A stretch of 64,000 nt of DNA, from the NCBI RefSeq assembly GCF_030651595.1, contig NZ_JAUSCH010000004.1, positions 74,026-138,025 on the forward strand, written 5' to 3'. Shown here piece by piece: positions 4,217-28,652 of the stretch; positions within the stretch are counted from its first letter, which is position 1; each line of letters begins with the position of its first letter. The DNA comes from Candidatus Oleimmundimicrobium sp. (lineage in GTDB: Bacteria > Actinomycetota > Aquicultoria > UBA3085 > Oleimmundimicrobiaceae). Both the position numbers and the translations under genes were made by a program. The notes below the pieces were generated by a model. That model was not told the DNA's origin and did not search any database. It worked only from the letters and a program-made list of their open reading frames with translations.

Positions 4217-5101
4217 TTACAAAACTTCGAGACTTACGTAACACAGACCTCTGCTTGGAGAATAAATTTTTGAAAAAGCTGTCTTCGATAAATCAATAAC
4301 CCTGCCCCGCGCATATGGACCTCTGTCAATTATTTTTACGGTTACTTGCTGGCCGTTTAAAAGATTTGTAACTCTTACCATTGTTCCTTTGGGAAGAGTT
4401 TTATGGGCAGCAGTTAATCCTGGAATATTATACCAGCTTGCCCAGCCCTTTTCGCAATTTTTTGTAGAATTTACGGGTTTTTCCAAGATTGGCACACTTT
4501 TTGGTGGTTTAATATATGTTTTTAAGTTTGAAAGAGCTATCTTTTCTTCGTTTAGTTCTTTCTTTAACTTTAGTTTCAGTTCGTTGGTTTGGGTCACCAA
4601 TTTTTCCTGTTTTTCATAATTTTCTTGCAGTTTACTTAATTGTAATTGAATTTCTGATTTTGAAAGTTGGAATTCTTTTATTAGTTTAGCGTCTTTTTTT
4701 GAGATATTAATTAAGGCATTAAGAGTAAAAAAGAAGTCGTGAACATTATTGTTATTAAGAAGAGTCATTGCCGGTAAAAAATCATTTTGTTTGTAAAGGA
4801 TTACAATTCTTGCACTTAGTCCATCTACTGATTTATTAAGATCACCCTCAGCATCGTTAAGACGGGTTTCAGTTTCAACCATTTCATTTTGAGATTTTAT
4901 AAGATATAACATTGCTTCGTTGTATTTTTTTACGGTTTTGTCCAGTTGTCCTTCAATTTTTTTTGTATCAAGTTTTAATTTTTTAGTTTCTTCATTTTGA
5001 ACTGCTAAAATTGTTGTCGGGGTTAAGCTTAAAATAATAATTAAAATAGTTGCCGAATAAAAAACTTTGGCTGGAAAATTTTTTGAGGAAAGTAACTTCA
5101 A
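4217..5101 (-). CDS. secreted coiled-coil protein with C-terminal RlpA-like/3D (double-psi beta-barrel) domain
   Basis: N-terminal hydrophobic signal/TM segment, a long coiled-coil region, and a C-terminal CEKGWASWY...GTMVRVTNL..VTVKIIDRGPY segment typical of the RlpA/3D DPBB fold. Confidence 0.6.
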   Translation of the reverse strand: MKLLSSKNFPAKVFYSATILIIILSLTPTTILAVQNEETKKLKLDTKKIEGQLDKTVKKYNEAMLYLIKSQNEMVETETRLNDAEGDLNKSVDGLSARIVILYKQNDFLPAMTLLNNNNVHDFFFTLNALINISKKDAKLIKEFQLSKSEIQLQLSKLQENYEKQEKLVTQTNELKLKLKKELNEEKIALSNLKTYIKPPKSVPILEKPVNSTKNCEKGWASWYNIPGLTAAHKTLPKGTMVRVTNLLNGQQVTVKIIDRGPYARGRVIDLSKTAFSKIYSPSRGLCYVSLEVL

Positions 5102-15081: not shown

Positions 15082-15657
15082 ATGGTGAATGTGTCCCAAG
15101 ATGACAATTTAAAGCATATTGTTGAAGAATCAAAAAAGGATCCGGAAGCTTTTGTTAAAGTTTATGATTTGTTTTTTAATAAAATTTACGGCTATGTCTA
15201 CTATAAAGTGGGCAGTGTGGAGGACGCAGAAGATATAACGGAACAAGTTTTTTTAAAAGCTCTTGTGGCTATCGGGAAATTTAAATGGGAAGGCGCTTTT
15301 TTTTCATCATGGCTTTTTAAAATAGCGCACAATCAAATAGTTGATTATTTTAGAGCTCGAGCAAAAACAGTAAACAACAAAACAGTAAACAACATACCTG
15401 ACGAACAAATGGATAAAATTCCGGATAAAGGGGAGTGTTTAGAAAGGATAGTTGAAACAAAAATGTCGTTAAGTTATATACAAAACGAAATCCTTAAATT
15501 AACAAAAGAGCAGCAAGACGTGCTTATTTTAAAATTTTTAAGTGGTTTTTCCAATATGGAAATAGCTAAGTTTCTTAACAAGACAGAGGGAGCGGTAAAA
15601 GCCCTTCAACATAGAGCGTTAAACTCCTTAAGAAAAATTTTAAAGGAGAGATATTAA
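15082..15657 (+). CDS. RNA polymerase sigma factor, ECF (sigma-70 region 2 + region 4) family
   Basis: 191 aa with sigma-70 r2 and r4 regions and an HTH at the C-terminus. Its stop overlaps the start of the next gene (TAAATG). Confidence 0.8.
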   Translation: MVNVSQDDNLKHIVEESKKDPEAFVKVYDLFFNKIYGYVYYKVGSVEDAEDITEQVFLKALVAIGKFKWEGAFFSSWLFKIAHNQIVDYFRARAKTVNNKTVNNIPDEQMDKIPDKGECLERIVETKMSLSYIQNEILKLTKEQQDVLILKFLSGFSNMEIAKFLNKTEGAVKALQHRALNSLRKILKERY

Positions 15658-16611
15658 ATGAATCGGAAATTTGACGAGGCTTTAAATAATTGCATAAAGT
15701 TAATAAAAAACGGGGAAGAAGATATTGATGGATGTTTGGCAAAATATCCTAAATATAGTCAGAAATTAAAACCACTCCTCAGTACTTTTGTTGCTTTAAA
15801 AAATGTGCCAAAACCAAAATCATCGGCTCAATTTAAACAAACGGCTAGGTCAAGGTTATTAGAACAAGCAAAATTAATGAAAAGATCTTCTTTTTTCATT
15901 AATTTTGCTAAACCTAAGAAGTTTTCTTCAGCAATGCCAGTATTTCTTCAAGTGGCAGCTGCCATTCTTATCGTTGTCCTTTTAAGTGGGGGAACAGTTA
16001 TGGCGTCGGCAAGTAGTTTGCCCGGAGATTTGCTTTATCCTGTTAAAATTGCAACTGAGGAAGTTCAACTTTTTCTTACTTTCAACAAAACAGCCAAAGC
16101 TGAGTTGCACTTAAAATTTGCCGAAAAGCGTTTGAATGAAATCAAAGCTATTGATCAAGATGAAATTGATGTTAATCTCGACAACATTGTAAGCTCTATG
16201 ACTAAGCATTTAAATAAAGCTATGAATTTAACGAATGAGATGCAAGTTGAAGAAAGAGGGGAAGCACTCTTAAAAATATTGTATTTTATTCAACACGAGG
16301 AACCATTGTTGCAACAAGTTGCAAATAAAGTATCAAGCAAAGAAGGAAATGCTTTGAAAAATGCCATTAAGGCAACCTTAGAAGATAATTTTAACAATGA
16401 ACTTAGATTTAAAAACTCGAAAACATTAATTGAGATTGAAAAAGAAGAGAAAAAAGAAAAAGAATTTGGCGAAACTCAAATCGAGACAAAAGATAATTTA
16501 AAGAACGACCTGAGCGATGACAATAACGATGGCAGTAGCTCTTTTGATTTAGAACAAAAAGATGGTGCTAATGATGAAGATGATTTCGAGAAAAAAATTC
16601 AGAAAAGATAA
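15658..16611 (+). CDS. putative anti-sigma factor / membrane protein (single TM, acidic C-terminus)
   Basis: Translationally coupled to the ECF sigma gene. Cytoplasmic N-terminal ~100 aa, one TM helix (VFLQVAAAILIVVLLSGGTVMA), then an extracytoplasmic domain. Confidence 0.55.
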   Translation: MNRKFDEALNNCIKLIKNGEEDIDGCLAKYPKYSQKLKPLLSTFVALKNVPKPKSSAQFKQTARSRLLEQAKLMKRSSFFINFAKPKKFSSAMPVFLQVAAAILIVVLLSGGTVMASASSLPGDLLYPVKIATEEVQLFLTFNKTAKAELHLKFAEKRLNEIKAIDQDEIDVNLDNIVSSMTKHLNKAMNLTNEMQVEERGEALLKILYFIQHEEPLLQQVANKVSSKEGNALKNAIKATLEDNFNNELRFKNSKTLIEIEKEEKKEKEFGETQIETKDNLKNDLSDDNNDGSSSFDLEQKDGANDEDDFEKKIQKR

Positions 16612-16750
16612 ATCTTTAATTGGGAGTTAAGATTTTGAGCGCTGATGTCGATAATTATAATTGAGAGCCCCGAGGTTGCTGGGTGAGACTTGTAAAGAGT
16701 TAAATTGTAAAAGACCCTATGACAACCCCAAAGGGTTCTCTTTTTATGCG

Positions 16751-17011
16751 CTAATTTTTATTTGCCGATTTATTTTTAGACGAACTACCAGAAGGCGGTT
16801 CTTTTTTTATTTGAGATTTAGTTTTTGTCTGTTTCTTTTTCGAATCTGTTTTATAAAAACCCGTACCTTTAAAAATAATTCCTGCTGGATGATAAATTTT
16901 TTTAGTTTTTCCTCCACAAAGATTGCATTTAATTTCAAACTCTTCGTTTATCCCACGAATTACCTCAAAGCAGTTTCCGCACTTTTCGCATTTATAGTCG
17001 TAAATAGGCAT
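16751..17011 (-). CDS. FmdB-family zinc-ribbon protein
   Basis: MPIYDYKCEKCGNCFEV...CNLCGG CxxC...CxxC motif. The internal start at 17011 has a TGAGGT RBS, whereas the long ORF start at 17077 lacks one. Confidence 0.7.
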   Translation of the reverse strand: MPIYDYKCEKCGNCFEVIRGINEEFEIKCNLCGGKTKKIYHPAGIIFKGTGFYKTDSKKKQTKTKSQIKKEPPSGSSSKNKSANKN

Positions 17012-17444
17012 ATATTTTAACCTCATTATTATAATATAAGTCCCAAGTAACCGCTCTGTTGATTTTTTTAAGTTCATCTCTTCCGGTACGCGGGCTTCCT
17101 TGCCAAAAAAGCAATTTAGTTACCATGTACTTTCTAAGACAAATAAAAAACCAATTTGCAAGCTTCTTGGGACTTAATTAAATGTTATCAGTTAGTCGAG
17201 AAAAGTCAATAAATTACTTTTGGGAGAGGCTATAAAACATGATTAAAACAGGCTTCCAATTCTTCAAAGTAAATTTATTTTAGCAAGATAATCTGCGAAT
17301 ATTTAGTAAGTATTATAGTTAAACAATGGTTCTTGTGATAAAATTAATTAGTTAATTAAAATGTATATGATAATTTTTAATTACGTGGAGGAATAGTTGG
17401 TTTTTTGTAGAATTATTAATTATAAGGTATCGCGGGAGTAAATA

Positions 17445-19445
17445 GTGGATTTTAAAAACAAATTAATAGAACAAAAAGAATTTAACGCAATTCTTTCTAG
17501 TATTGCTGATGGAGTAATACTAACTGACCTTGAAGGAAGGGTTGTCCATTTAAGTCAGTCTGCTGAAAATATGTTAATGATTGAGGCAGATGAAGTTTTA
17601 GGAAAATGTATATCTATTTCTACTTTACTAGGGAAAGAAAGCCAAAGTGAAAAAGGTCTGGCTTTTTGTTGGGAAGAAAAGAACTGTAATGAAAAAATTT
17701 GTCCGGTTCACTCTAAAGACAACCCTCGTTGTTGGACAGTTTCAAATACCTGTCCTAATGGTGTTACACAAGGAACTTTTAGAGAGAAAATAAAACATTG
17801 CCAGACCTGCGAAATATTTAAACGAAATTCAAAAATACTTGAAGAACCAGCAGTAACAATGGTTAGTGAATTGGTAATAGATGGACCTCACAAAAAAATT
17901 CTTCAAATTAAAACAAATCCCGTTGTTGACGAGAGGGGAAATTTTCTTGGATTTGTAAGGACCTTGCACGATATTACGTTTCAACGAGAAATAAACACCA
18001 TGAAAGACGAATTTGTTTCAACAGTGTCACATGATTTTCGCATCCCATTAACCTCGATAAAAGGTTACGTTGACCTTATTCTCGATGGCGAAGCTGGAAA
18101 ATTTAATGATATGCAAAAAGAATTTCTGACAATTGTAAAACAAAACAGTGATCGCCTCATCAGTATGATTAATGATTTCTTGGATATCTCGAGAATCGAA
18201 TCTGGGAAGATGAATTTTGATATTAAACCCGAAAATATAAAATCAATGATTCATGACGTTGTTAGTACTTTTCAGAGATTTATTAACGAGAAAAAGATGG
18301 AAATTGAAATAAAAGTTCCTGATAAGTTGCCGAATATTTTAGCTGACCACGATCGAATAATTCAAGTTCTTAATAATTTAGTGAGTAACTCAATTAAATA
18401 TACTCCCCCTAATGGTAAGGTTGTAGTGGAAGTTTGTGAAAAAGGAAATTACATTGTTGTTTCAATTTCCGACACAGGAGTTGGAATTTCTACTAAAGAC
18501 CAAGAGAAATTGTTCACAAAGTTTTATCGAGTAGATAGCTCGCTTATTCAAGAAACCGGCGGGAGCGGTCTGGGTTTATCAATTTGTAAAACTATAATTG
18601 AGCGGCATGGCGGAAAAATTTGGGTAGAAAGTAAAGAGGAGAAGGGCAGCAAGTTTAGTTTTTCGCTGCCAGCTTTAAAGGTAGAAGTCAAACCAGAACT
18701 AATAAAACAAGGGATGAGGATTCTTGTTGTTGATGATGAACCCGATATTTCTAAATTGATTCAACTTTATCTTGAAAAAGAAGGATATTACGTGATTAAG
18801 GCTTTTGATGGAGAAGAAGCCGTTAAAATGGCCAGAAAAGAACATCCGGACCTTATTACGTTAGATATTATGATGGGCAAGATAAGTGGGTTTGACGTTT
18901 TAAAAGAACTAAAAGAAGATGCTCATACGGCTTCTATTCCCGTAATTGTTTTATCGGTTATTTTAGATGAAAAAAAAGGATATCGGTTGGGTGCATCCGA
19001 CTATCTTCCTAAGTCGGTTGATAGAAAAAAACTTATTGAAAGTGTTAATCGATTAGTTGGCAGAACTAATCAGCCTCAAAACGAAAAAATGGTTTTAGTT
19101 GTCGATGACGATAAAGATATTTCAAGTTTTATTGAATTCAACCTTAAGAAAGCAGGTTTTAAGGTAATTAAAGCTTTTAATGGAGTTAAAGCCCTTGATA
19201 TTTTAAAGAAAGAAAAGCCCGATCTTATGCTTCTTGATCTCAGAATGCCTGAAATGGATGGCTATGAGGTAATGGAAAGAATAAAGAACAATAAAAAGTT
19301 ATCTAAGATTCCTGTCATTATTATGACCGCTTACGATTTAGATCGCGAAAAAACCGAAATTTTAAATTTGGCTATTGATAAAATTTCAAAACCTTTTTCC
19401 ATGAGAATGCTCACGTCAAAAATTAAAGAAACTTTAAAAAAATGA
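17445..19445 (+). CDS. hybrid sensor histidine kinase: PAS with Cys-rich insert, HisKA, HATPase_c, REC, REC
   Basis: GTG start after a GGGAG RBS. HisKA H-box STVSHDFRIPLT, HATPase N/G boxes, and two receiver domains (ILVVDDEPD...LDIMM; VLVVDDDKD...LDLRMP). The Cys-rich block lies at aa ~75-124. Confidence 0.85.
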   Translation: MDFKNKLIEQKEFNAILSSIADGVILTDLEGRVVHLSQSAENMLMIEADEVLGKCISISTLLGKESQSEKGLAFCWEEKNCNEKICPVHSKDNPRCWTVSNTCPNGVTQGTFREKIKHCQTCEIFKRNSKILEEPAVTMVSELVIDGPHKKILQIKTNPVVDERGNFLGFVRTLHDITFQREINTMKDEFVSTVSHDFRIPLTSIKGYVDLILDGEAGKFNDMQKEFLTIVKQNSDRLISMINDFLDISRIESGKMNFDIKPENIKSMIHDVVSTFQRFINEKKMEIEIKVPDKLPNILADHDRIIQVLNNLVSNSIKYTPPNGKVVVEVCEKGNYIVVSISDTGVGISTKDQEKLFTKFYRVDSSLIQETGGSGLGLSICKTIIERHGGKIWVESKEEKGSKFSFSLPALKVEVKPELIKQGMRILVVDDEPDISKLIQLYLEKEGYYVIKAFDGEEAVKMARKEHPDLITLDIMMGKISGFDVLKELKEDAHTASIPVIVLSVILDEKKGYRLGASDYLPKSVDRKKLIESVNRLVGRTNQPQNEKMVLVVDDDKDISSFIEFNLKKAGFKVIKAFNGVKALDILKKEKPDLMLLDLRMPEMDGYEVMERIKNNKKLSKIPVIIMTAYDLDREKTEILNLAIDKISKPFSMRMLTSKIKETLKK

Positions 19446-19461
19446 GAAGCTGGTAAAGACA

Positions 19462-19868
19462 ATGGATAAAAAAAGATATTAGTTGTTGATGATGATTTAA
19501 ACATATGTCGCTTAATTAAATTTAAATTAACTAATAAAGGTTATGAGTTAATGGAAGCGCATAATGGAGAGGACGCATTAATAAAAGCGGTTCTTTTTAA
19601 ACCGGACTTAATTTTGCTTGACGTGATGATGCCCAAAATGAACGGCTGGGAAGTTTATGGAAAATTAAAAGAACACGCGGAATTAAAAGAAATTCCAGTA
19701 ATAATGGTAACAGCAGTAAGCCAGTTAGATGAGTCATTTGAAAATATTAATGCGCAAAACATTAAAGGATATATAAAAAAGCCCTTTGATTTTTCAGAAC
19801 TGATAAAAACAATAGAAAAGAACTTAGGACAAGCAGTTGACGGTAGTCCATTCGGCAGCCTAAGTTAG
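19462..19868 (+). pseudogene. CheY-like single-domain response regulator, interrupted by a homopolymer (A7) frameshift
   Basis: ATG at 19462 reads MDKK then hits a stop. With one extra A in the A7 run (19468-19474) the frame becomes MDKKKILVVDDDLNICR... continuous with ORF 19551..19868 (REC domain, LLDVMMP, KPFD). Confidence 0.6.
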
Positions 19869-19892
19869 AACAGGTAAAACAGGAGAGACTGC

Positions 19893-21914
19893 ATGAAGAA
19901 AGTTGATAACAATATAGCCGAAGCTATCCTTCTAAGTACGGCAGATGGATTAATTGCTTTTGATAAAGATGACAAAATAATTTTATTTAATCCTGTAGCT
20001 GAGCAAATATTGGGGGTTAAACAAGAAAAAGTTATCAACAAACCAATTAAAATGTCGGGTTTACTGGGAATAAAGAGATTAGATAAAGCTGAGGAACCAT
20101 TGAAGTGTTGGGAGTATTTTGGATGCAAACATAAAAAATGCTCAGTATGCAATAAAAAAATTACCCGTTGTTGGCTTTATTCAAACACTTTTTGCAAAGG
20201 CACCTTTAAGGGAACATTTAAAGATAAGATTGATGAATGCAGAGAATGCGAGTTTTTCAAGTTAAATTCAAAAAGAGTAGAAGAAACAGGTATAGCTTCT
20301 GTCGAACAAGCTATCACTAATGGGTCTAACCGTAAAATTATACAAATCAAAACCAGTTCGATTTTAAATAAAAACAATGAATTTTTAGGTTATGTTAAAT
20401 CAATACGCGACATAACTGCTGAGAAAGAAATTTCTCAGCTGAAAAACGAGTTTATTTCCACTGTTTCACACGAACTTCGAACGCCACTTACCTCAATTAA
20501 AGGTTATATTGATCTTCTTTTAGAGCAAGAGGCCGGCAATGTTAATCAAACACAGCGAGAGTTTCTGTCTATAGTGAAGCAAAACAATGATCGTCTTGTT
20601 GTTTTAATCAATGATTTGCTGGATATTTCAAAAATCGAATCGGGTCGAGTACACCTTAGAATTAAAAGTTATAATTTAGCTGAAATTTTAGCAGAAGTTG
20701 TTAATACTTTTAAAACACTTGCAAATCAAAAAAAACAAATTATAAAACTCCGTATTTCAAAAAATTTACCTAAAATTGCCGCAGACAGAGATAAGATGTC
20801 GCAGGTTATGGCCAATCTCATAAGTAATGCAATAAAGTATACGCCAACTGGCGGAACCATAAAGATTGGAACAAAGCGCAACGACTCCAGGGTTGAAATC
20901 TATGTAACCGATACAGGAATTGGAGTATCTCCAGAAGATCAAAAAAATCTTTTTACAAAGTTTTTTCGCGTTGACAATTCACTTACTCGTGAAATTGGAG
21001 GAACCGGTTTAGGGTTATCTATTTGCAAGAAAATAATTGAGTTACATGGCGGGAAAATTTGGGTAGATAGCGAACTAGGCAAGGGGAGCACCTTTACTTT
21101 ATCTATACCTATTTATGAAATAATTGAAGAAGAAAAAACTAAGAGAAACTTAAGTAAATTCCTTAAAAAAGGATTTAGGAAGGGTAAAAAAATTCTTGTG
21201 GTAGACGATGAACCTGAAATTGCAATGTTGCTTCAAATTTATCTCGAAAAAGAGGGGTATAGCGTAATAAAAGCATTTAGCGGTGAAGAAGCGCTGGAAG
21301 TTGCAAGACAAGAAAGCCCGGATTTAATTACTCTAGACATAATGATGGATAAAATGGATGGATTTGAAGTGCTCCGAGAGTTAAAAGATAAGTCGGACAC
21401 GGCCAATATTCCTGTTATTGTTCTTTCTATTGTTTCCGATGAGTACCGGGGGATAAAACTTGGAGCAGTAGATTATCTTACAAAACCAATTAATATTGAA
21501 AAGTTATCTAGGACAGTGAGCAATGCCCTTCGGTCTTCTGCCGGAGCTTCAAAAAAGGTTTTAATAGTAGATGACGATAAAGACCTTGTTGGGTTAGTTC
21601 AAGAAATACTTAACAATCAGGGTTATAATACAGTTGTTGCTTATGATGGCTTAGAAGGGATTATTGCCGCAAAAAAGGAACAGCCCGATCTCATTCTTTT
21701 GGATATAAAAATGCCCCAGTTAAATGGTTATGAGGTTGTGCAGAAACTTAAAAAAGCAAAGGAAACCTCCAAAATCCCAATTGTCGTTATGACAGCTTAC
21801 GAATTTGACAAAACTAAGACTGAAATATTAAGCTTGATAGAACAGCAAATTTCAAAACCATTTTCAGTCGATATGATATATTCCAAAATTAAAGAAGTAT
21901 TAAAAGAGGTATAA
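19893..21914 (+). CDS. hybrid sensor histidine kinase paralog: PAS with Cys-rich insert, HisKA, HATPase_c, REC, REC
   Basis: Same architecture as 17445..19445, with roughly half the residues identical by eye. Cys-rich block at aa ~72-122, H-box STVSHELRTPLT, two REC domains. Confidence 0.85.
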   Translation: MKKVDNNIAEAILLSTADGLIAFDKDDKIILFNPVAEQILGVKQEKVINKPIKMSGLLGIKRLDKAEEPLKCWEYFGCKHKKCSVCNKKITRCWLYSNTFCKGTFKGTFKDKIDECRECEFFKLNSKRVEETGIASVEQAITNGSNRKIIQIKTSSILNKNNEFLGYVKSIRDITAEKEISQLKNEFISTVSHELRTPLTSIKGYIDLLLEQEAGNVNQTQREFLSIVKQNNDRLVVLINDLLDISKIESGRVHLRIKSYNLAEILAEVVNTFKTLANQKKQIIKLRISKNLPKIAADRDKMSQVMANLISNAIKYTPTGGTIKIGTKRNDSRVEIYVTDTGIGVSPEDQKNLFTKFFRVDNSLTREIGGTGLGLSICKKIIELHGGKIWVDSELGKGSTFTLSIPIYEIIEEEKTKRNLSKFLKKGFRKGKKILVVDDEPEIAMLLQIYLEKEGYSVIKAFSGEEALEVARQESPDLITLDIMMDKMDGFEVLRELKDKSDTANIPVIVLSIVSDEYRGIKLGAVDYLTKPINIEKLSRTVSNALRSSAGASKKVLIVDDDKDLVGLVQEILNNQGYNTVVAYDGLEGIIAAKKEQPDLILLDIKMPQLNGYEVVQKLKKAKETSKIPIVVMTAYEFDKTKTEILSLIEQQISKPFSVDMIYSKIKEVLKEV

Positions 21915-21933
21915 ATTAAAAGAGGTATAAAAA

Positions 21934-22308
21934 ATGTCAAAAGGTAAAATTTTAGTTGTCGACGACGAACCAGACATCTCTAATTTAATTAAATTTACCT
22001 TAGAGAGAAGGGGATATAAGATTATCTTAGCCAAAAATGGGCAGGATGCAATGAATATAGCAAAAAAAGAACAACCTAAATTAATTTTACTTGATGTGAT
22101 AATGCCAGTTATCAATGGATATGAAGTATGCAGGTTACTAAAAGAATGTGCTGAAACAAAAGATATTCCGGTTATTATGTTATCGGGGAAAACTCAGAAA
22201 ACAGAGATAGAACATGGATTAAAGGTGGGGGCTAATAATTATATTTGCAAGCCTTTTAGCCCTAAAGAATTTGCTAATACCATTGAAGAAATTTTTTCAA
22301 AAAATTAA
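21934..22308 (+). CDS. single-domain CheY-like response regulator
   Basis: 124 aa made of a REC domain only (ILVVDDEPD, LLDVIMP, KPF). No output domain. Confidence 0.85.
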   Translation: MSKGKILVVDDEPDISNLIKFTLERRGYKIILAKNGQDAMNIAKKEQPKLILLDVIMPVINGYEVCRLLKECAETKDIPVIMLSGKTQKTEIEHGLKVGANNYICKPFSPKEFANTIEEIFSKN

Positions 22309-22435: not shown

Positions 22436-22882
22436 ATGGCCATAGATGAAACAGAAACATGGAAAAAAAATATCACACCAATATTTCCCTGGATTTTGCT
22501 GTTAATCGTTACAATAATCACACTATCCATCATAACTACTTCATTTAATGAGAATCCTAAAAATACCCAAGAAGCTGGGGTTGAAAAGAGCAAAGAAGTT
22601 AATTTAGAGGCGGAAGAGGACGATGAAATTACAGAAACAGAGAAAATCTCCGTTTCTGACAATAATGACCAAAAATATATTGGCAAAATAAGGATTCTTC
22701 TAAACGACCTAAATCTAAGAGATGAACCATCTATAACAGCGAGTGTGATAAAACAACTTAAAAAAGATACCATTTTTTTTGTAATTTCAGATGAAAATGG
22801 TTGGTATAAGATCACAGATGAAAAAGAAACGGAAGGTTATGTGGCCTCATCTTCTAAATATGTTGAATTAATTGAGGAATAA
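22436..22882 (+). CDS. membrane-anchored protein with C-terminal bacterial SH3-like domain
   Basis: N-terminal TM segment (IFPWILLLIVTIITLSIITT), an acidic linker, and a C-terminal SH3b-like segment (GKIRILLNDLNLRDEPS...GWYKI...GYVASSS). Confidence 0.5.
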   Translation: MAIDETETWKKNITPIFPWILLLIVTIITLSIITTSFNENPKNTQEAGVEKSKEVNLEAEEDDEITETEKISVSDNNDQKYIGKIRILLNDLNLRDEPSITASVIKQLKKDTIFFVISDENGWYKITDEKETEGYVASSSKYVELIEE

Positions 22883-22886
22883 GTCT

Positions 22887-23183
22887 ATGAAATCATTTGG
22901 TAGGGCGGATGAGTTTTATAGGGTTAAATTAATAACACTTTCAGAGACCCAGCCTGAAGAATTCGATTGGAAAGAAGATGTCCTTTATAGAAATCCGCCA
23001 AAAGAATTTACAGTATCTAATGAAATAGAATATCTGGTTATGATAGTTGATAAAAATACGGGTGAAAGTCATCACTCGTATTTTTATAAATTTAAACCAA
23101 AAGCTCAAAAAAAATTTGAGCTAATAAAGAAAGATTTAAAAGAGCTGACAAAAATGCAATTTCAAAAAAGATATCATATTTAA
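22887..23183 (+). CDS. hypothetical small protein
   Basis: ORF 22872..23183. ATG at 22887 follows a GAGGAA RBS. No recognisable domain. It contains copy 1 of the 22-bp repeat. Confidence 0.4.
   Translation: MKSFGRADEFYRVKLITLSETQPEEFDWKEDVLYRNPPKEFTVSNEIEYLVMIVDKNTGESHHSYFYKFKPKAQKKFELIKKDLKELTKMQFQKRYHI
22914..22935. repeat. 22-bp direct repeat copy 1 (TTTTATAGGGTTAAATTAATAA)
   Basis: Exact 22/22 match to the copy at 23364..23385, 450 bp downstream. Confidence 0.8.
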
Positions 23184-23613: not shown

Positions 23614-24642
23614 CTATAAGCAAACAAGAGATTGACAGAGATCTAATTGCTCTCTTGTCCCAATAACAATTAAAATATCGCCCTCATTTATCTTTATTGA
23701 TGTCGACGGGTTTGTGTTATAGCTTCCGTTTTTCTTGATAGCTAATACAAGGACTCCTGTTTTGTTTCTAATATTTGCTTCTTCGAGAGTTTTGCTTGCT
23801 ATGCTTGAGCCACTTTTTACTTCAAGTTCTTCCAATTGAAATTTTAAATCCTCACCATGGGTAACTATGTCCAGATAATCAGAAGTTATCGGTTTAATCA
23901 CTAGAGCCGCCATTCTTCTTCCGCCAATTATTGCAGGCGATATTACTCTATTTGCCCCAGCTTTTTTTAATTTTTCCTCTGATTCCTCAAAGTTTGCTCG
24001 TGCAACGATAAAAATGTTTGGGTTTAAGGCTCTTGCGGAAAGTGAAACAAAGACATTGTCAGCATCTGTATCTACAGCTGCAATTAATCCTTTTGCTTTA
24101 GCAATACCGGCCAATTCCAATACCTTGTCGTTTGTAGCATCTCCTTCAACAAATAATAAATTTTCTTCGTCAAGCTCGAAGATGGCCTCAGGATTATTTT
24201 CTACTACAACAAAAGGAATTTTTGTTTTCTTAAATTCTTTGACAACTTGACTGCCAACCCTCCCGTAACCACAGACAATATAGTGATTTTTTAAACTTTC
24301 AATTTTCTTTTTCATCCTTTTCTCCCCCACTATTCCTTTTAAATGACCTTCAACTAAAAATTCAATAGTTGCGCCTAAAGCATATATTCCCGTGCCAACG
24401 CCGCCAACTATTAAACACAGGGTAAATATTTTACCGGCTGCAGAGAGGGGCGCAACTTCGCGAAACCCAACTGTTGAAATTGTAATAATTGTCATGTAGA
24501 GGGCATCAAATAATGACCACCCTTCTATTGATGAATAGCCAAATACGCCTGAGATTAACACAATAAAAAAAATAATCAGAGCCAATCTTAACCTGGAAAC
24601 TATATTTAAATTATTATGGTATTTATATTCCTGTACTCCCAA
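23614..24642 (-). CDS. two-TM potassium-channel-like protein with RCK (TrkA-N/TrkA-C) domains; non-canonical filter TVGFRE
   Basis: Two TM helices flank a pore loop TISTVGFREV. The cytoplasmic region carries a Rossmann motif GYGRVGSQV (TrkA-N) and a TrkA-C domain. Confidence 0.7.
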   Translation of the reverse strand: MGVQEYKYHNNLNIVSRLRLALIIFFIVLISGVFGYSSIEGWSLFDALYMTIITISTVGFREVAPLSAAGKIFTLCLIVGGVGTGIYALGATIEFLVEGHLKGIVGEKRMKKKIESLKNHYIVCGYGRVGSQVVKEFKKTKIPFVVVENNPEAIFELDEENLLFVEGDATNDKVLELAGIAKAKGLIAAVDTDADNVFVSLSARALNPNIFIVARANFEESEEKLKKAGANRVISPAIIGGRRMAALVIKPITSDYLDIVTHGEDLKFQLEELEVKSGSSIASKTLEEANIRNKTGVLVLAIKKNGSYNTNPSTSIKINEGDILIVIGTREQLDLCQSLVCL

Positions 24643-25054
24643 ATCCGTTACTTCCCCTTATAGTGCTGTCAAGTTCAGAAACCACTTTAAAAGAAGGAGT
24701 TTCTACTTTTTGTATTACCAGCTGACAGATCTTGTCTCCTTTTTTTACGGCGAAAGTCTCTTTTTTGTCTGTATTGATGGCAATTACACATATCTCGCCC
24801 CTATACTTTGAATCAATCAAACCAGGCGTATTTAATATACTGAGCCCGTGTTTAATTGCCAAGCCGGAGCGTGGCTGAACAAATCCAGCATATCCACCGG
24901 GTATTGAAAGGGCAATTCCTGTGGGGACAAGAACTCTTTCACCCGGTTTTATATCGACATCGATTCTACTAAACAAATCGCAGCCAGCGTCGCCATCGTG
25001 TGCCGGTTTGGGTGTTTGTAAGTCCTTATCTAAAAGTTTAAGTTTTATTTCCAT
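24623..25054 (-). CDS. dut: dUTP diphosphatase (trimeric dUTPase)
   Basis: Five dUTPase motifs are present (AGCDL, RSGLA, GLIDSKYRGE, GDKICQLV, RGSNGFGSTG). The start at MEIKLK (25054) follows a GGGAGA RBS. Confidence 0.85.
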   Translation of the reverse strand: MEIKLKLLDKDLQTPKPAHDGDAGCDLFSRIDVDIKPGERVLVPTGIALSIPGGYAGFVQPRSGLAIKHGLSILNTPGLIDSKYRGEICVIAINTDKKETFAVKKGDKICQLVIQKVETPSFKVVSELDSTIRGSNGFGSTGI

Positions 25055-25089
25055 TAAAATATCTCCCATTAAATAATATTTATTAATTT

Positions 25090-25821
25090 TTACCCGCGTA
25101 ATTCTGTCGGTACAAAACGAAGGCATTCCTCGGTTAAATTAATAAGCAGTTCTCTTTTGTATGGCTTTGTTTCCATCAATTTTGGGTCTAATGTTACTTT
25201 GGGATTATACTGTTGTAAATAATAGTGCTGCGCTTTTCGGTTGCCCAAATATTGAGCTATTTCAATTACATCTTCTTTTTCGGCTAGTTTAGGAACTACC
25301 GTAGTTCTGAATTCATGAGAAATGCCTGAATTTACTATTAAATCGATGCTTTTTTTAATTTTTTCGATATTGACGCTGACGCCAGCTGCTTTTGAATATT
25401 TTCTGAAGCTTGACTTAACATCCATTGCAATATGATCAACTAATTCTTCTTTAATCAATCGGGAGAGAACCCGAGGCCGGGTCCCATTGGTATCCAGTTT
25501 TACTGAATAGTCCATCTCTTTTAATATGGATAAGAAATCTTCTAATCCATATTCTATGGTAGGTTCTCCCCCGGTGATTATCACACCATCAAGCCACTTT
25601 TTCTTTGTTTCCAGATGTTGCCTTACTTTTTCCCACGAAAGCAAAGATTGTTTTTTTGGAGAAAGCACAAGTTCCGGGTTGTGACAAAAAGGACATTTAA
25701 AGTTACATCCTCCAACAAATAAAACGCATGCAACCCTCCCCACCCAATCAAGCATGGTAACAGGAACTATTCCCCTTAATTCAATTGATGAACTTTCTAA
25801 ACAGGAACTTACTTTTAACAT
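25090..25821 (-). CDS. nrdG: anaerobic ribonucleoside-triphosphate reductase activating protein (radical SAM)
   Basis: CNFKCPFCHN radical-SAM cluster motif. The ATG abuts the stop of the upstream grx-like gene (TAAATG coupling). Confidence 0.85.
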   Translation of the reverse strand: MLKVSSCLESSSIELRGIVPVTMLDWVGRVACVLFVGGCNFKCPFCHNPELVLSPKKQSLLSWEKVRQHLETKKKWLDGVIITGGEPTIEYGLEDFLSILKEMDYSVKLDTNGTRPRVLSRLIKEELVDHIAMDVKSSFRKYSKAAGVSVNIEKIKKSIDLIVNSGISHEFRTTVVPKLAEKEDVIEIAQYLGNRKAQHYYLQQYNPKVTLDPKLMETKPYKRELLINLTEECLRFVPTELRG

Positions 25822-26064
25822 TTAAGACACATTTCTAAGCTCATCAATATTTGGGATAACACCCAACCAAGATTTCATTTCTTTTCCAATTTCATCCGTT
25901 ACGACTATTGACGGAGCAGACATCACTCCATAAAAAGCAGCTTCAGCTAAACCATTAACTTCACCAATATCATAAAGTTCTACATCATTAAGCTGAGCGG
26001 CTAGCGCTTTGGCCTCCGGACACTTTGGGCAGTCCGCTTTCACAAAAAGTTTTATTTTCATCAT
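25822..26064 (-). CDS. glutaredoxin/thioredoxin-like small redox protein (CPKC active site)
   Basis: 80 aa (MMKIKLFVKADCPKCPEAK) with a strong AAGGAGGT RBS. It sits between nrdD and nrdG, consistent with an NrdH-like reductant role. Confidence 0.7.
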   Translation of the reverse strand: MMKIKLFVKADCPKCPEAKALAAQLNDVELYDIGEVNGLAEAAFYGVMSAPSIVVTDEIGKEMKSWLGVIPNIDELRNVS

Positions 26065-28177
26065 TATTACCTCCTTCTAAATTAGTTCGAATTCTATCTT
26101 TGATTTCAGCAACTTTTCCCTTATTCCACGTGGAAACCTTTGAAAAGTATCCAACAATTCTAGTGATGCCATAAACGTTATCTGAATCACAAAGAGGACA
26201 ATTTTTTAAAAGCCCCCTAGAGGTTTTGCAGCAATTATTACAAACTGTAAATTCAGGACTAAACGCAATTTGGGAAGCATTGGTATTTTTAAATGTTTTT
26301 ACCACAAAACTCTTTATTGCAGCTGGGTCCGGTTCATGCTCGCCAAGCCATATATGCACTATTGCTCCAGCTTCAATTAAAGGATGAAAGAGACTTTGTT
26401 TTTCAACTCTTTCAATATAATCAACCTCTGCATCAACAGCAATGTGAACACTATTAGTGTAATAGTACTCGCCATTTTCAAGACTTCCCTTGATAACTTT
26501 TCGTGTTTGGCGAGGATAATATTTCATATCTAATTTTGCTAATCTATATCCGCTCGATTCGGCAGGAGATTCTTCAAGTATCATATTGATTCCATATTGT
26601 TCAGATAAATTTTTGCACTTTAAGTTCATATGAGAAATTACTTTTAATCCAAACTTTAAAGCTTCATCGGATTCATGAAGTTGTTTACCTGTATGAGCTT
26701 CAACCATTTCATTTAGCCCAAGGAGACCTACTAAATAAGTTAATCGTTCAATTTTTAAATATGGATCACCGTCTTTAGACGCACTCAGCATTGCAAGTGG
26801 ACCATTTTTACCAAGATCAAGCAGACTTTTTATAAACTCCTTTTTTTGTAAGTGTGCTTTTGCAACAAGTTCAATGGCTTTATCGATCTCCATAAAAAAC
26901 AGTTGATCATTATCTTGTGCTTTATAAGCTATTCTTGGCAGGTTAATCGTTACATTTTGAAGTGCGGAAAAACGCATTTTTTCAGGAGTTTTTGTTTCTT
27001 TTAAATCTGAACCTTTCAGTCTCAGTTTTAACCGGCAACACTGTGAAACAGTTACTTCGTCTCCTCTATCGAAAACAAAGTAAGTAATTCCTTGTTTACT
27101 TGCTAATTTACAAGCTAAATCTAAGAATTCTTCATGCCCTTCAGTTTCAAAAAAGTCTTTGTTTATGTGAAGTAATGGTTTAGGAAAGACAAAAGTTTTA
27201 CCCACAGCATCGCCTTCCAGATAAATCTCAAACATGGCTTTTAAGAACATCTGAGCTTCTTTTTCGTATTCCTTATAAGTTTTACCCGTAAATACTCCTC
27301 CCGGGCCAACAGCTTTTGTATCTCTAAAATGAGCGGGTATATTCCAGTAAAGATTAAAGTCAGTAAATACAACCTGAGAACCTCTTGCGCCAGCCAATTG
27401 ATTAAATTCGTAAATTAACATTTGAGCTAATTGCTTTATTTCATCATATGACCGGCCAACCATATAAGGAGCAAAAAACATATTTACAGCTTCCCACCCA
27501 ATTGCACCGGCATAATGTGACTGTAACGAAGAGGCCATTTTCACCATATGTCCTATAAGAACTTCGGCATGTTTGGCTGGTTTTGAAGAACTGGTAATAT
27601 TGGGAAGGCTTAGGCCATATTTTTTAATATATTCAAGTGAGTGCCCTCCGCAATACGGCCTCACAATAAAACCAAGGTCATGAATATGAATGTCTCCTAC
27701 AAGGTGGGAAAGTGCCACATCTTCGCTATATACTCGTCTCAACGCAAACTCTTTAAGAATCGATTCGGCAATGGTTAAATTTATCGATTCCGGATTATGT
27801 GTCGTATTGCTGTTCTCTTTGTTTGGATTAAAGATGATTTGTTCAACATCATACATCGGAAGACCCAAGTGAGAATGTTTCTTGTGTGCAATAGTAAGGC
27901 CGCGTTGTATTAATTCAATGTCAATAAGTTCTCTAATAATACTCGTTGTTACCTCAGAAAGATTGCTGTTTAAAATCTTTTGCTCAACAACATCGGCAAT
28001 TCCCTTAGCTAACTCGCTAGCTAAGTTAGTCTCTTTGATCAGGGATTCTATTATTTTCTCTTTGTTCCAGCCATTTATTTCCTGTTGTGATGCTGTGCTT
28101 ACCAACAGTGCGATATCTGTGGTATCATCTGGTCTATCCGGCAAATTTTTTATTACACTGATTACTCTTTTCGACAT
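25988..28177 (-). CDS. nrdD: anaerobic ribonucleoside-triphosphate reductase, class III
   Basis: Glycyl-radical motif RIVGYFS preceded by a CxxC...CxxC zinc ribbon. Start MSKRVISV at 28177 follows a GGAGGA RBS. The 3' end overlaps the grx-like gene by ~77 nt. Confidence 0.85.
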   Translation of the reverse strand: MSKRVISVIKNLPDRPDDTTDIALLVSTASQQEINGWNKEKIIESLIKETNLASELAKGIADVVEQKILNSNLSEVTTSIIRELIDIELIQRGLTIAHKKHSHLGLPMYDVEQIIFNPNKENSNTTHNPESINLTIAESILKEFALRRVYSEDVALSHLVGDIHIHDLGFIVRPYCGGHSLEYIKKYGLSLPNITSSSKPAKHAEVLIGHMVKMASSLQSHYAGAIGWEAVNMFFAPYMVGRSYDEIKQLAQMLIYEFNQLAGARGSQVVFTDFNLYWNIPAHFRDTKAVGPGGVFTGKTYKEYEKEAQMFLKAMFEIYLEGDAVGKTFVFPKPLLHINKDFFETEGHEEFLDLACKLASKQGITYFVFDRGDEVTVSQCCRLKLRLKGSDLKETKTPEKMRFSALQNVTINLPRIAYKAQDNDQLFFMEIDKAIELVAKAHLQKKEFIKSLLDLGKNGPLAMLSASKDGDPYLKIERLTYLVGLLGLNEMVEAHTGKQLHESDEALKFGLKVISHMNLKCKNLSEQYGINMILEESPAESSGYRLAKLDMKYYPRQTRKVIKGSLENGEYYYTNSVHIAVDAEVDYIERVEKQSLFHPLIEAGAIVHIWLGEHEPDPAAIKSFVVKTFKNTNASQIAFSPEFTVCNNCCKTSRGLLKNCPLCDSDNVYGITRIVGYFSKVSTWNKGKVAEIKDRIRTNLEGGNNDENKTFCESGLPKVSGGQSASRSA

Positions 28178-28205
28178 AAGCAAATCCTCCCATAATATAA
28201 TTTTT

Positions 28206-28652
28206 TTACTGTAGCTTTTCAAGTTCAGCCATAAACTCATCTATATCTTTAAACTCTCTATAAACCGACGCAAACCGAATATAAGCAACCTTGTCTATCT
28301 TTTTCAGATGTCTTAAAATCATCTCTCCCAGCTCTTGAGATGAAATTTCGTATTTAAATTCATTTTTGAGTTGTGTTTCAATATCCGATACCATTTTTTC
28401 AAGCCTTGATGCTGTAACATGCCTTTTCACTGTTGCTCGGCCCAATCCGGCAATTAGTTTTCCTCGATTAAACGGTTCGCAAGTTCCATCTTTTTTTATG
28501 ACTGTAAGCGGAATTTCTTCTATTCTTTCAAATGTTGTAAATCGCTGAGAACATTTAACGCATTCCCGTCTTCTGCGAATTGCATCATCGGAATCTGTTG
28601 CTCTTGAATCAACTACTCTGGTGTCTAAACTTCCGCAAAATGGGCACTTCAT
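28206..28652 (-). CDS. nrdR: transcriptional repressor NrdR
   Basis: MKCPFCGSLDTRVVDSR zinc ribbon plus an ATP-cone domain. The start at 28652 is preferred over the upstream ATG. Confidence 0.85.
   Translation of the reverse strand: MKCPFCGSLDTRVVDSRATDSDDAIRRRRECVKCSQRFTTFERIEEIPLTVIKKDGTCEPFNRGKLIAGLGRATVKRHVTASRLEKMVSDIETQLKNEFKYEISSQELGEMILRHLKKIDKVAYIRFASVYREFKDIDEFMAELEKLQ

Follow-up and report, generated by a model that had tools for sequence, protein, structure and literature searches.

Oxygen sensor kinases of the NreB type carry an iron-sulphur cluster held by four cysteines in a cytoplasmic PAS domain. In Caulobacter ShkA, the first receiver domain (REC1) is a c-di-GMP-binding pseudo-receiver, and the relay continues via the histidine phosphotransfer (HPt) protein ShpA to TacA. 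It is common for hybrid kinases to have fused receivers and to be partnered by bare ones. In Methanosarcina acetivorans, the kinase MA4377, which has two fused receivers, phosphorylates the downstream protein MA4376 directly in vitro, with no intramolecular relay under these conditions (bioRxiv 10.1101/2021.03.04.434021). Here, we describe four adjacent genes, encoding hybrid kinase 1 (HK1), receiver 1 (RECA), hybrid kinase 2 (HK2) and receiver 2 (RECB), in a stretch of 64,000 nucleotides from Candidatus Oleimmundimicrobium sp. (contig NZ_JAUSCH010000004.1, positions 74,026 to 138,025; hereafter, the window). Every feature tested places this locus among the class I hybrid histidine kinase systems that have stand-alone receivers. 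The kinase family itself is uncharacterised, although its architecture is already known and has been studied in MA4377/MA4376 and RetS. The most distinctive feature of the locus is a cysteine-rich insertion nested within the PAS fold of its kinases. The reading that we tentatively prefer, with doubt slightly outweighing belief, is that two metal- or redox-sensing cytoplasmic kinases directly phosphorylate shared stand-alone receivers, without a transcription factor as output.

Pfam analysis assigned to each kinase a partial PAS domain, HisKA, HATPase_c and two Response_reg stretches (for HK1, HisKA E=6e-19, HATPase_c E=2e-32 and the two Response_reg stretches E=4e-50), in agreement with a first-pass annotation of the same DNA, which had proposed that each kinase ends in two receivers; the small open reading frames (ORFs) contain Response_reg alone. 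In both kinases HisKA and HATPase_c scored well above their cut-offs, as expected of class I, and the DTGxG, FxxF and GGxGLGL motifs are seen in both translations. The phospho-accepting His196 of HK1 is invariant in an alignment of 36 family members, the alignment to which statements of invariance in the sensor also refer. Likewise, all four fused receivers have the acidic pair, the acceptor Asp, the Ser/Thr and the Lys expected of a receiver. At NCBI, a protein under the name 'response regulator [Candidatus Oleimmundimicrobium sp.]' matches HK1 with 100% identity; its lineage is given as Actinomycetota, Ca. Aquicultoria, Subteraquimicrobiales.

The Pfam PAS match on HK1 covers residues 12-57 only, i.e. 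profile positions 2-47 of 113, and the PAS fold is broken by the insertion at the point where this match ends. The AlphaFold2 model is confident (predicted local distance difference test score, pLDDT, 84.8; predicted TM-score, pTM, 0.77) and runs through two PAS strands, three short helices, the insertion at residues 62-132, strands at 139-145, 151-161 and 167-176, and the helix of the DHp domain (for dimerization and histidine phosphotransfer), placing the insertion between the PAS helices and strands beta3-beta5. Foldseek matches to the model were the PAS domains of WalK, VicK, LOV, DosP, FixL and Aer2. Six cysteines of the insertion are invariant (in HK1 numbering C75, C81, C86, C96 within an RCW motif, and C119 and C122 within a CxxC motif), spaced as C-x5-C-x4-C-x9-C-x22-C-x2-C over a segment of ~70 residues; the same holds for W97 and, very nearly, for P87 and R95. 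This cysteine motif, which was overlooked in the first-pass annotation along with a frameshift in the gene for receiver 1 (described below), is carried by 116 of the 120 best homologues.

The insertion is matched by the NCBIfam model of the two-CW domain, NF045718, at residues 75-129 of HK1 (30.8 bits, E=3e-7) and 71-126 of HK2 (33.1 bits, E=6e-8), with both kinases falling under the curated cut-off of 35 bits and with ~55 residues in the window insertions set against the 77 positions of the model. The same model matches 32 of the 36 family members at E<=1e-3. Two CW motifs are present in HK1, C75-W76 and C96-W97, the first of which occurs in 76 of the 120 homologues. The six-cysteine module itself is covered by no Pfam model, a sequence search of the insertion against solved structures gave no meaningful match, and literature searches for the two-CW domain, DVU0259 and Oleimmundimicrobium found nothing.

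At E<=1e-3, a profile built from the insertion alone recovered 1698 cluster representatives, and 566 of these also passed E<=1e-10. In these proteins the insertion-type module sits N-terminally, internally or repeated, sometimes with two to four copies per protein, and all ten of the carriers that were sampled are signalling proteins (GGDEF, histidine kinase, sigma-54 activator, GGDEF-EAL and HD-GYP). Judged by its distribution among protein sequences, the six-cysteine, 'two-CW'-like module is a mobile domain. Stand-alone carriers of the module, proteins of 74-140 residues, were also observed (protein clusters P0121-P0267). The locus offers a soluble entry point to an unstudied cysteine-rich module of ~1700 protein clusters, which include kinases, c-di-GMP enzymes and sigma-54 activators. 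Should redox state or oxygen be what this module senses, a large number of anaerobes' signalling proteins would gain an annotation in one step. No transmembrane segment was found in HK1 or HK2 (the maximum 19-residue hydropathy of HK1 is 1.22), and we infer from their sequences that both kinases are cytoplasmic sensors based on a metal or an iron-sulphur cofactor.

The two kinases are 48% identical over 664 residues, and their genes are ~64% identical in DNA over the alignable core. Protein identity differs by region, from ~40% in the sensor to 54% in the catalytic core and 67% in the DHp region. In the kinase tree HK1 and HK2 form separate clades, each with 100% bootstrap support, and the HK1 clade takes in the lineages of related loci L004 and L090 at 57-58% identity; the second kinase of L004 is still of the long form. 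Because these lineages lie inside the HK1 clade, the duplication predates the split from them. The first-pass annotation had described the locus as a direct tandem duplication of a kinase-receiver unit and had suggested nucleotide identity as a means of dating it; the kinases are indeed tandem paralogues, and the value obtained makes the duplication an old one. It had also raised the concern that one copy might be an artefact of assembly. No point was found in favour of a collapsed or doubled repeat, an explanation that is scarcely credible and already refuted by the divergence of the copies; moreover, the same four-gene arrangement recurs in independent assemblies of relatives from other samples (L002/L003 and L089, in which HK1 is 79% and 72% identical, respectively). 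An independent assembly of the same contig is available in Logan run SRR13727530.

For the receivers, the proposed duplication did not hold. Receiver 1 and receiver 2 are 49% identical. The distant relatives L006, L007 and L009 have a single kinase of ~780 residues with an extra N-terminal PAS domain, followed by two different stand-alone receivers, Ra (~123-130 residues) and Rb (~151-156 residues, with a conserved C-terminal KLRTxxDIM tail). In a neighbour-joining tree RECA grouped with Rb and RECB with Ra, with moderate bootstrap support. Receiver-type profiles were then built from 14 receivers of other loci, leaving out the window, L002 and L089, and these assigned RECA to type b by 29 bits and RECB to type a by 55 bits. 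Leave-one-out typing was correct for all 14 training receivers, with margins of 25-65 bits, while the four fused receivers scored neutrally. Because receivers 1 and 2 represent two different old receiver types, one of each having been retained, they are not duplicated partners.

Gene order in the relatives points in the same direction. The order is HK1-Ra-Rb-HK2-Ra-Rb in L090, a full tandem duplicate of a three-gene unit, HK1-Ra-HK2-Ra-Rb in L004, and HK1-Rb-HK2-Ra in the window, L002 and L089. In the simplest history suggested by these sequences, the ancestral unit would have been kinase-Ra-Rb, which underwent tandem duplication and then reciprocal receiver loss, the window lineage having lost Ra after HK1 and Rb after HK2. 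The Rb tail, K(E/Q)AKLRT(I/M)(V/L)DIM(H/K)(R/K)S, was observed in L006 (9734-10189 and 10299-10799), L007 (9724-10185) and L009 (12383-12853) and is missing from the window lineage; it could serve as a docking peptide. A scan of a genome collection with the sensor alignment keyed on the generic H-box, and the breadth of the family was taken from the protein search instead, by which it is widespread in uncultured anaerobic Actinomycetota. Among the matches listed in the genome-collection scan, the true relatives are L009, L010 and perhaps L061.

Both partners of the kinases had been described as bare CheY-like receivers, and Response_reg is the only domain in either; however, the gene for receiver 1 is interrupted by a frameshift. 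From the natural start codon at 19462 the sequence reads ATG GAT AAA AAA AGA TAT TAG, with a stop at codon 7 (TAG 19480). The A-run at 19468-19474 contains seven A, where eight are expected; the receiver frame runs from 19470, and an eighth A in the run would restore MDKKKILVVDDD. The gene is intact in three relatives, among them L002 (ATG GAT AAG ACG AAA ATA, MDKTKIL) and L089 (ATG GAT AAG AAG AAA ATA, MDKKKIL), and the Logan assembly shows the identical A7, which may stem from the same reads. Because the receiver frame stays open for 132 codons past the shift, and the restored protein shares 59% of its residues with the L002 orthologue, the lesion is a very recent inactivation, a read error, or bypassed. 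Bypass is possible by slippage or by initiation at the rare ATA codon at 19476. Programmed frameshifting at the A-run was considered and found no support: no downstream stimulatory RNA structure was found (z=0.28), the phase of the A AAA AAG heptamer is wrong for it, and the relatives carry mixed AAG/AAA/ACG codons with no shift.

The listed receiver 1 ORF of 105 residues, which begins at an internal ATG, is without strand beta1 and its acidic pair, and its product, going by what is known of receiver domains, should not be phosphorylatable. RECB has the complete D-D-D-S-Y-K set, and RECA has all of these residues only after repair of the frameshift. Neither receiver reached the 160-bit cut-off of the NCBIfam DVU0259/DivK-like model NF045717, restored receiver 1 scoring 83.6 bits and receiver 2 74.0 bits. 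Might HK1 and receiver 1 form a decaying, redundant first unit, with only HK2 and RECB functional in this genome? Such decay could be read into the frameshift, which falls at codon 5 and appears in two assemblies, into REC1 of the HK1 clade, where K-S replaces the hallmark K-P, and into the loss of receivers in related lineages. We find this very doubtful, as HK1 is full length with its motifs intact and belongs to a clade conserved in several lineages (57-79% identity), the K-S change is common to the whole clade and hence old and tolerated, and the open frame of receiver 1 and its identity to the orthologue imply that any inactivation is very recent or a read error.

In the preferred reading, direct phosphorylation of shared receivers, the redox state, oxygen or a metal would be sensed by the six-cysteine module in the PAS domain of soluble HK1 and HK2, each of which would autophosphorylate its DHp histidine. 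Ra (RECB) and Rb (RECA), the stand-alone receivers, would then take the phosphoryl group directly from the kinase, while the two fused receivers would compete for it and may serve as a sink or attenuator within the protein. For output, the single-domain receivers, in which the Thr/Ser-Tyr switch is kept, would bind other proteins once phosphorylated. HK1 and HK2 would share these receivers as targets, the main difference between them being what they sense or how sensitively. The DHp helix is strongly conserved in the family and hardly varies among HK1, HK2 and the single-copy forms, in all of which residues H+7, +8, +11, +12 and +15 of alpha1 are T, S, G, Y and L. Because these specificity positions have remained unchanged while the sensors have diverged, two sensors acting on the same two receivers are likelier than insulated pairs, and shared partners would explain why one Ra and one Rb were dispensable. 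The locus is a clean, compact example of module evolution, combining three-gene tandem duplication and reciprocal receiver loss with unchanged kinase specificity positions. A circuit through the stand-alone receivers is also the most reasonable form of the earlier suggestion that the output lies beyond the module.

Several considerations weigh against this reading. The six cysteines might hold structural zinc instead of sensing; the five DHp positions may not determine partner specificity here as they do in other kinases, from which that role is taken; and the Rb gene may be inactive in this genome, in which case half of the proposed output would be lost. An HPt protein is possible elsewhere in the genome, of which 64 kb was inspected, and fused REC2 has no aromatic switch residue, a described trait of the intermediary receivers of relays (PMC9981736). 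The last two points are also those that speak for a classical multi-step phosphorelay, in which the phosphoryl group would pass from His to a fused receiver, from there to a remote HPt protein and then to Ra/Rb or to an unlinked output response regulator; the full acceptor site in both fused receivers is in line with this as well. REC1 of both kinases is missing the usual Pro after the acceptor Asp, and, taken together, the residue changes in the fused receivers would agree with the passive acceptor roles that the preferred reading gives them, as in the intermediary receivers of PMC9981736. Unlike fused REC2, the stand-alone receivers keep the D-D-D-(S/T)-Y-K set, including the aromatic switch residue, and the FATGUY motif of intermediary receivers was found in none of the six receivers of the locus.

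The components that such a relay needs were sought in the window and in related loci. No Hpt, DNA-binding or enzymatic output domain was found by Pfam at E<=0.01 in the four ORFs or their neighbours, which bears out the first-pass annotation on this point. The NCBIfam models for BarA, TorS and ArcB match the kinase core and receivers only, ending before their HPt parts. Because the listed domains occupy every residue range of HK1 and HK2, the kinases have no space for a hidden domain of 100 residues. Neither was an HPt protein found among the neighbours of eight related loci, a scan of the window for the HxxKG motif returned a shadow ORF only, and no other kinases or receivers are present elsewhere in the window, the first 15 kb of which contain housekeeping genes. 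Neither the HPt protein nor the response regulator with an output domain that a His-Asp-His-Asp phosphorelay requires was found within the 64 kb, and it was concluded that the locus as encoded here is not a complete relay of this type. Furthermore, the stand-alone receivers are always encoded beside the kinase, the usual signature of direct partners, and MA4377 provides a precedent without intramolecular relay. A phosphorelay through a remote HPt protein is, for these reasons, unlikely.

The similarity of the kinases in the DHp region raises a further alternative, a multikinase network of the RetS/GacS type, in which one paralogue would control the other through a DHp heterodimer or by draining its phosphoryl groups, with regulatory roles for the fused receivers. 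The DHp regions, at 67% identity, have nearly alike dimer-interface helices, and the neighbouring, co-oriented genes, 16-24 nucleotides apart, suggest co-expression; RetS, with two tandem receivers and no HPt domain, uses several mechanisms of this kind on GacS (PMC5992135, PMC8498467). Nevertheless, all catalytic motifs are kept in HK1 and HK2, neither of which resembles a dedicated inhibitor, and single-copy relatives share the architecture with no partner kinase, which leaves a network of this type decidedly improbable.

The features of the locus and its immediate neighbours are listed in Table 1. The four genes all lie on the forward strand, separated by gaps of 16, 24 and 19 nucleotides, and no convincing terminator was found in these gaps. 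Because the gaps are small and free of a convincing terminator, HK1, receiver 1, HK2 and RECB probably form one operon, as judged from the DNA.

Table 1. Features of the kinase-receiver locus and neighbouring genes (positions in the window; aa, amino acids)
Feature	Position	Strand	Description	Basis
HK1 (kinase 1), 666 aa	17445-19445	+	Soluble hybrid histidine kinase; PAS with nested Cys-rich insertion-HisKA-HATPase_c-REC-REC	Pfam
HK1 Cys-rich insertion	17628-17840	+	aa 62-132	Alignment, AlphaFold2 model, NCBIfam
HK1 catalytic core	18000-18674	+	HisKA aa 186-254 (His196), HATPase_c aa 301-410	Pfam
HK1 fused receivers	18720-19430	+	REC1 aa 426-534, REC2 ~aa 545-662	Pfam Response_reg
Receiver 1 (RECA, type b)	19462-19868	+	Stand-alone receiver gene, frameshift-interrupted; listed ORF 19551-19868 (105 aa)	
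HK2 (kinase 2), 673 aa	19893-21914	+	HK1 paralogue, same architecture	Pfam
HK2 Cys-rich insertion	20103-20270	+	~aa 71-126	NCBIfam two_CW_domain
HK2 HisKA	20442-20645	+		Pfam
HK2 HATPase_c	20784-21113	+		Pfam
HK2 REC1	21192-21515	+		Pfam
HK2 REC2	~21549-21902	+		Pfam
Receiver 2 (RECB, type a), 124 aa	21934-22308	+	Intact stand-alone CheY-like receiver	Pfam E=9e-29
ECF sigma factor	15082-15657	+		Pfam
DUF5667 membrane protein	15658-16611	+		Pfam
SH3b protein	22436-22882	+	Single-pass membrane protein, C-terminal bacterial SH3	Pfam SH3_3/SH3_4
~98-aa protein	22887-23183	+	No Pfam family; last gene before convergent dcd-nrdG-nrdD block	

Upstream of the locus lies a pair of genes for an extracytoplasmic function (ECF) sigma factor and a DUF5667 membrane protein, which had been proposed, as a sigma/anti-sigma pair, to belong to a shared regulatory island. 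This proposal was not sustained: the pair is found upstream in the window and its closest relatives only (L002/L003 and L089) and is missing in L004, L090, L006, L007 and L009. In the other relatives its place is taken by genes for PadR and a PcsB-like hydrolase (NlpC/P60 or DPBB), or by unrelated genes. A small Zn_ribbon_8 (FmdB-like) protein with a Lys/Ser-rich tail is encoded on the reverse strand (16751-17077) between HK1 and the DUF5667 gene. The zinc-ribbon gene is conserved in L002, L003 and L089, the only loci besides the window to have it upstream, and the forward-strand ORF of 119 residues at 16661-17020 is a shadow of this gene. Upstream of HK1, the intergenic region of 367 bp (17078-17444) has a G+C fraction of ~0.28, compared with ~0.34 around it, and contains several weak sigma-70-like matches on both strands, none above shuffled expectation.

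Downstream, the membrane SH3b protein, likewise suggested to be part of the island, fared better as a more widely conserved neighbour, with homologues in L002, L089 and L006; its transmembrane segment spans residues 16-34 (hydropathy 2.54). It is followed by a protein of ~100 residues, which has homologues in L002, L003, L004, L005, L090 and L006, always on the strand of the module and just before convergent dcd-nrdG-nrdD (L002 12515-12841, L004 13027-13329, L090 8557-8889 and L006 12458-12769), and is conserved in five lineages. Its motif is FYRV...DW(K/R)DD(I/L)LY...LTKxQF, and the invariant residues include G5, F10-Y11-R12, W28, D31, L87-T88, F92 and Y96. The protein search returned only two homologues, and the structural model (pLDDT 54.5; beta strands and one long helix) was too poor to interpret and was not used for a fold search. 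The possibility that this protein is a hidden HPt was rejected, as a conserved His-x-x-Lys-Gly and a Pfam family are both lacking. Conservation of the downstream neighbours reflects either function or conserved synteny. Beyond them, on the reverse strand, the window encodes at 23614-28240 a TrkA-type K+ channel, dCTP deaminase, the activase of anaerobic ribonucleotide reductase (radical SAM) and probably NrdD (750 residues); these identities rest on synteny with L001 and L002, and the predicted gene set fits an anaerobic lifestyle.

Several relatives have, beside the kinase gene, one for an M23 peptidase or for a PcsB-like coiled-coil cell-wall hydrolase (NlpC/P60 or DPBB), often together with PadR (L004 5742-6854; L090 785-1921; L006 5766-6806, reverse strand; L007 11110-12015). 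In the window, a DPBB_1 protein is encoded 12 kb upstream (4217-5101, reverse strand). The hydrolase neighbours and the WalK-like core of the kinases, both recognized from sequence, hint at a cell-wall connection. A broader proposal would hold that the six-cysteine module belongs to no characterised kind of sensor and detects redox state or oxygen through a metal cluster (probably iron-sulphur), that kinase-Ra-Rb serves the uncultured anaerobic Actinomycetota as a control system throughout the lineage, and that all of its output is exerted through the single-domain receivers on proteins of the cell envelope or of division (the SH3b protein, the ~100-residue protein and the PcsB-like hydrolases) and not on transcription; that all of this should hold together seems to us a long shot.

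Among known systems, WalK and VicK gave the best NCBIfam matches to the window kinases (293 and 299 bits) and the best Foldseek matches to the PAS-DHp unit (9a5d_A and 4i5s), and relatives of the window kinases adjoin PcsB-like hydrolase genes. These scores are far from the cut-offs of 725 or 680 bits for membership, and, in contrast to WalK/VicK, the window kinases have no membrane or extracellular domain, no OmpR-type WalR partner and no DNA-binding regulator in their locus, while WalK has no fused receivers. ShkA (DHp-CA-REC1-REC2; mentioned in PMC9981736) is likewise a soluble kinase followed by two receiver-fold domains, but the window kinases keep the acceptor site in both fused receivers and have no linked HPt protein. 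RetS of Pseudomonas aeruginosa, similarly a hybrid kinase that has two tandem receivers but lacks an HPt domain and, in its case, works within a multikinase network (PMC5992135, PMC8498467), differs in having a periplasmic sensor and seven transmembrane helices and in targeting the kinase GacS instead of cognate stand-alone receivers. As in NreB, a soluble kinase carries conserved PAS cysteines, in organisms where oxygen status matters, although here the cysteines are six, with another spacing, and are known from sequence and a model. In architecture the locus resembles MA4377/MA4376, which shares a kinase core with two receivers that keep the acceptor Asp, a bare CheY-like gene downstream and no HPt domain. 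MA4377 is membrane-bound, with a CHASE4-HAMP-PAS input and an adjoining Msr-type transcription factor, whereas the window locus combines soluble kinases and a cysteine-rich PAS input with two kinases, two receiver types and no linked transcription factor.

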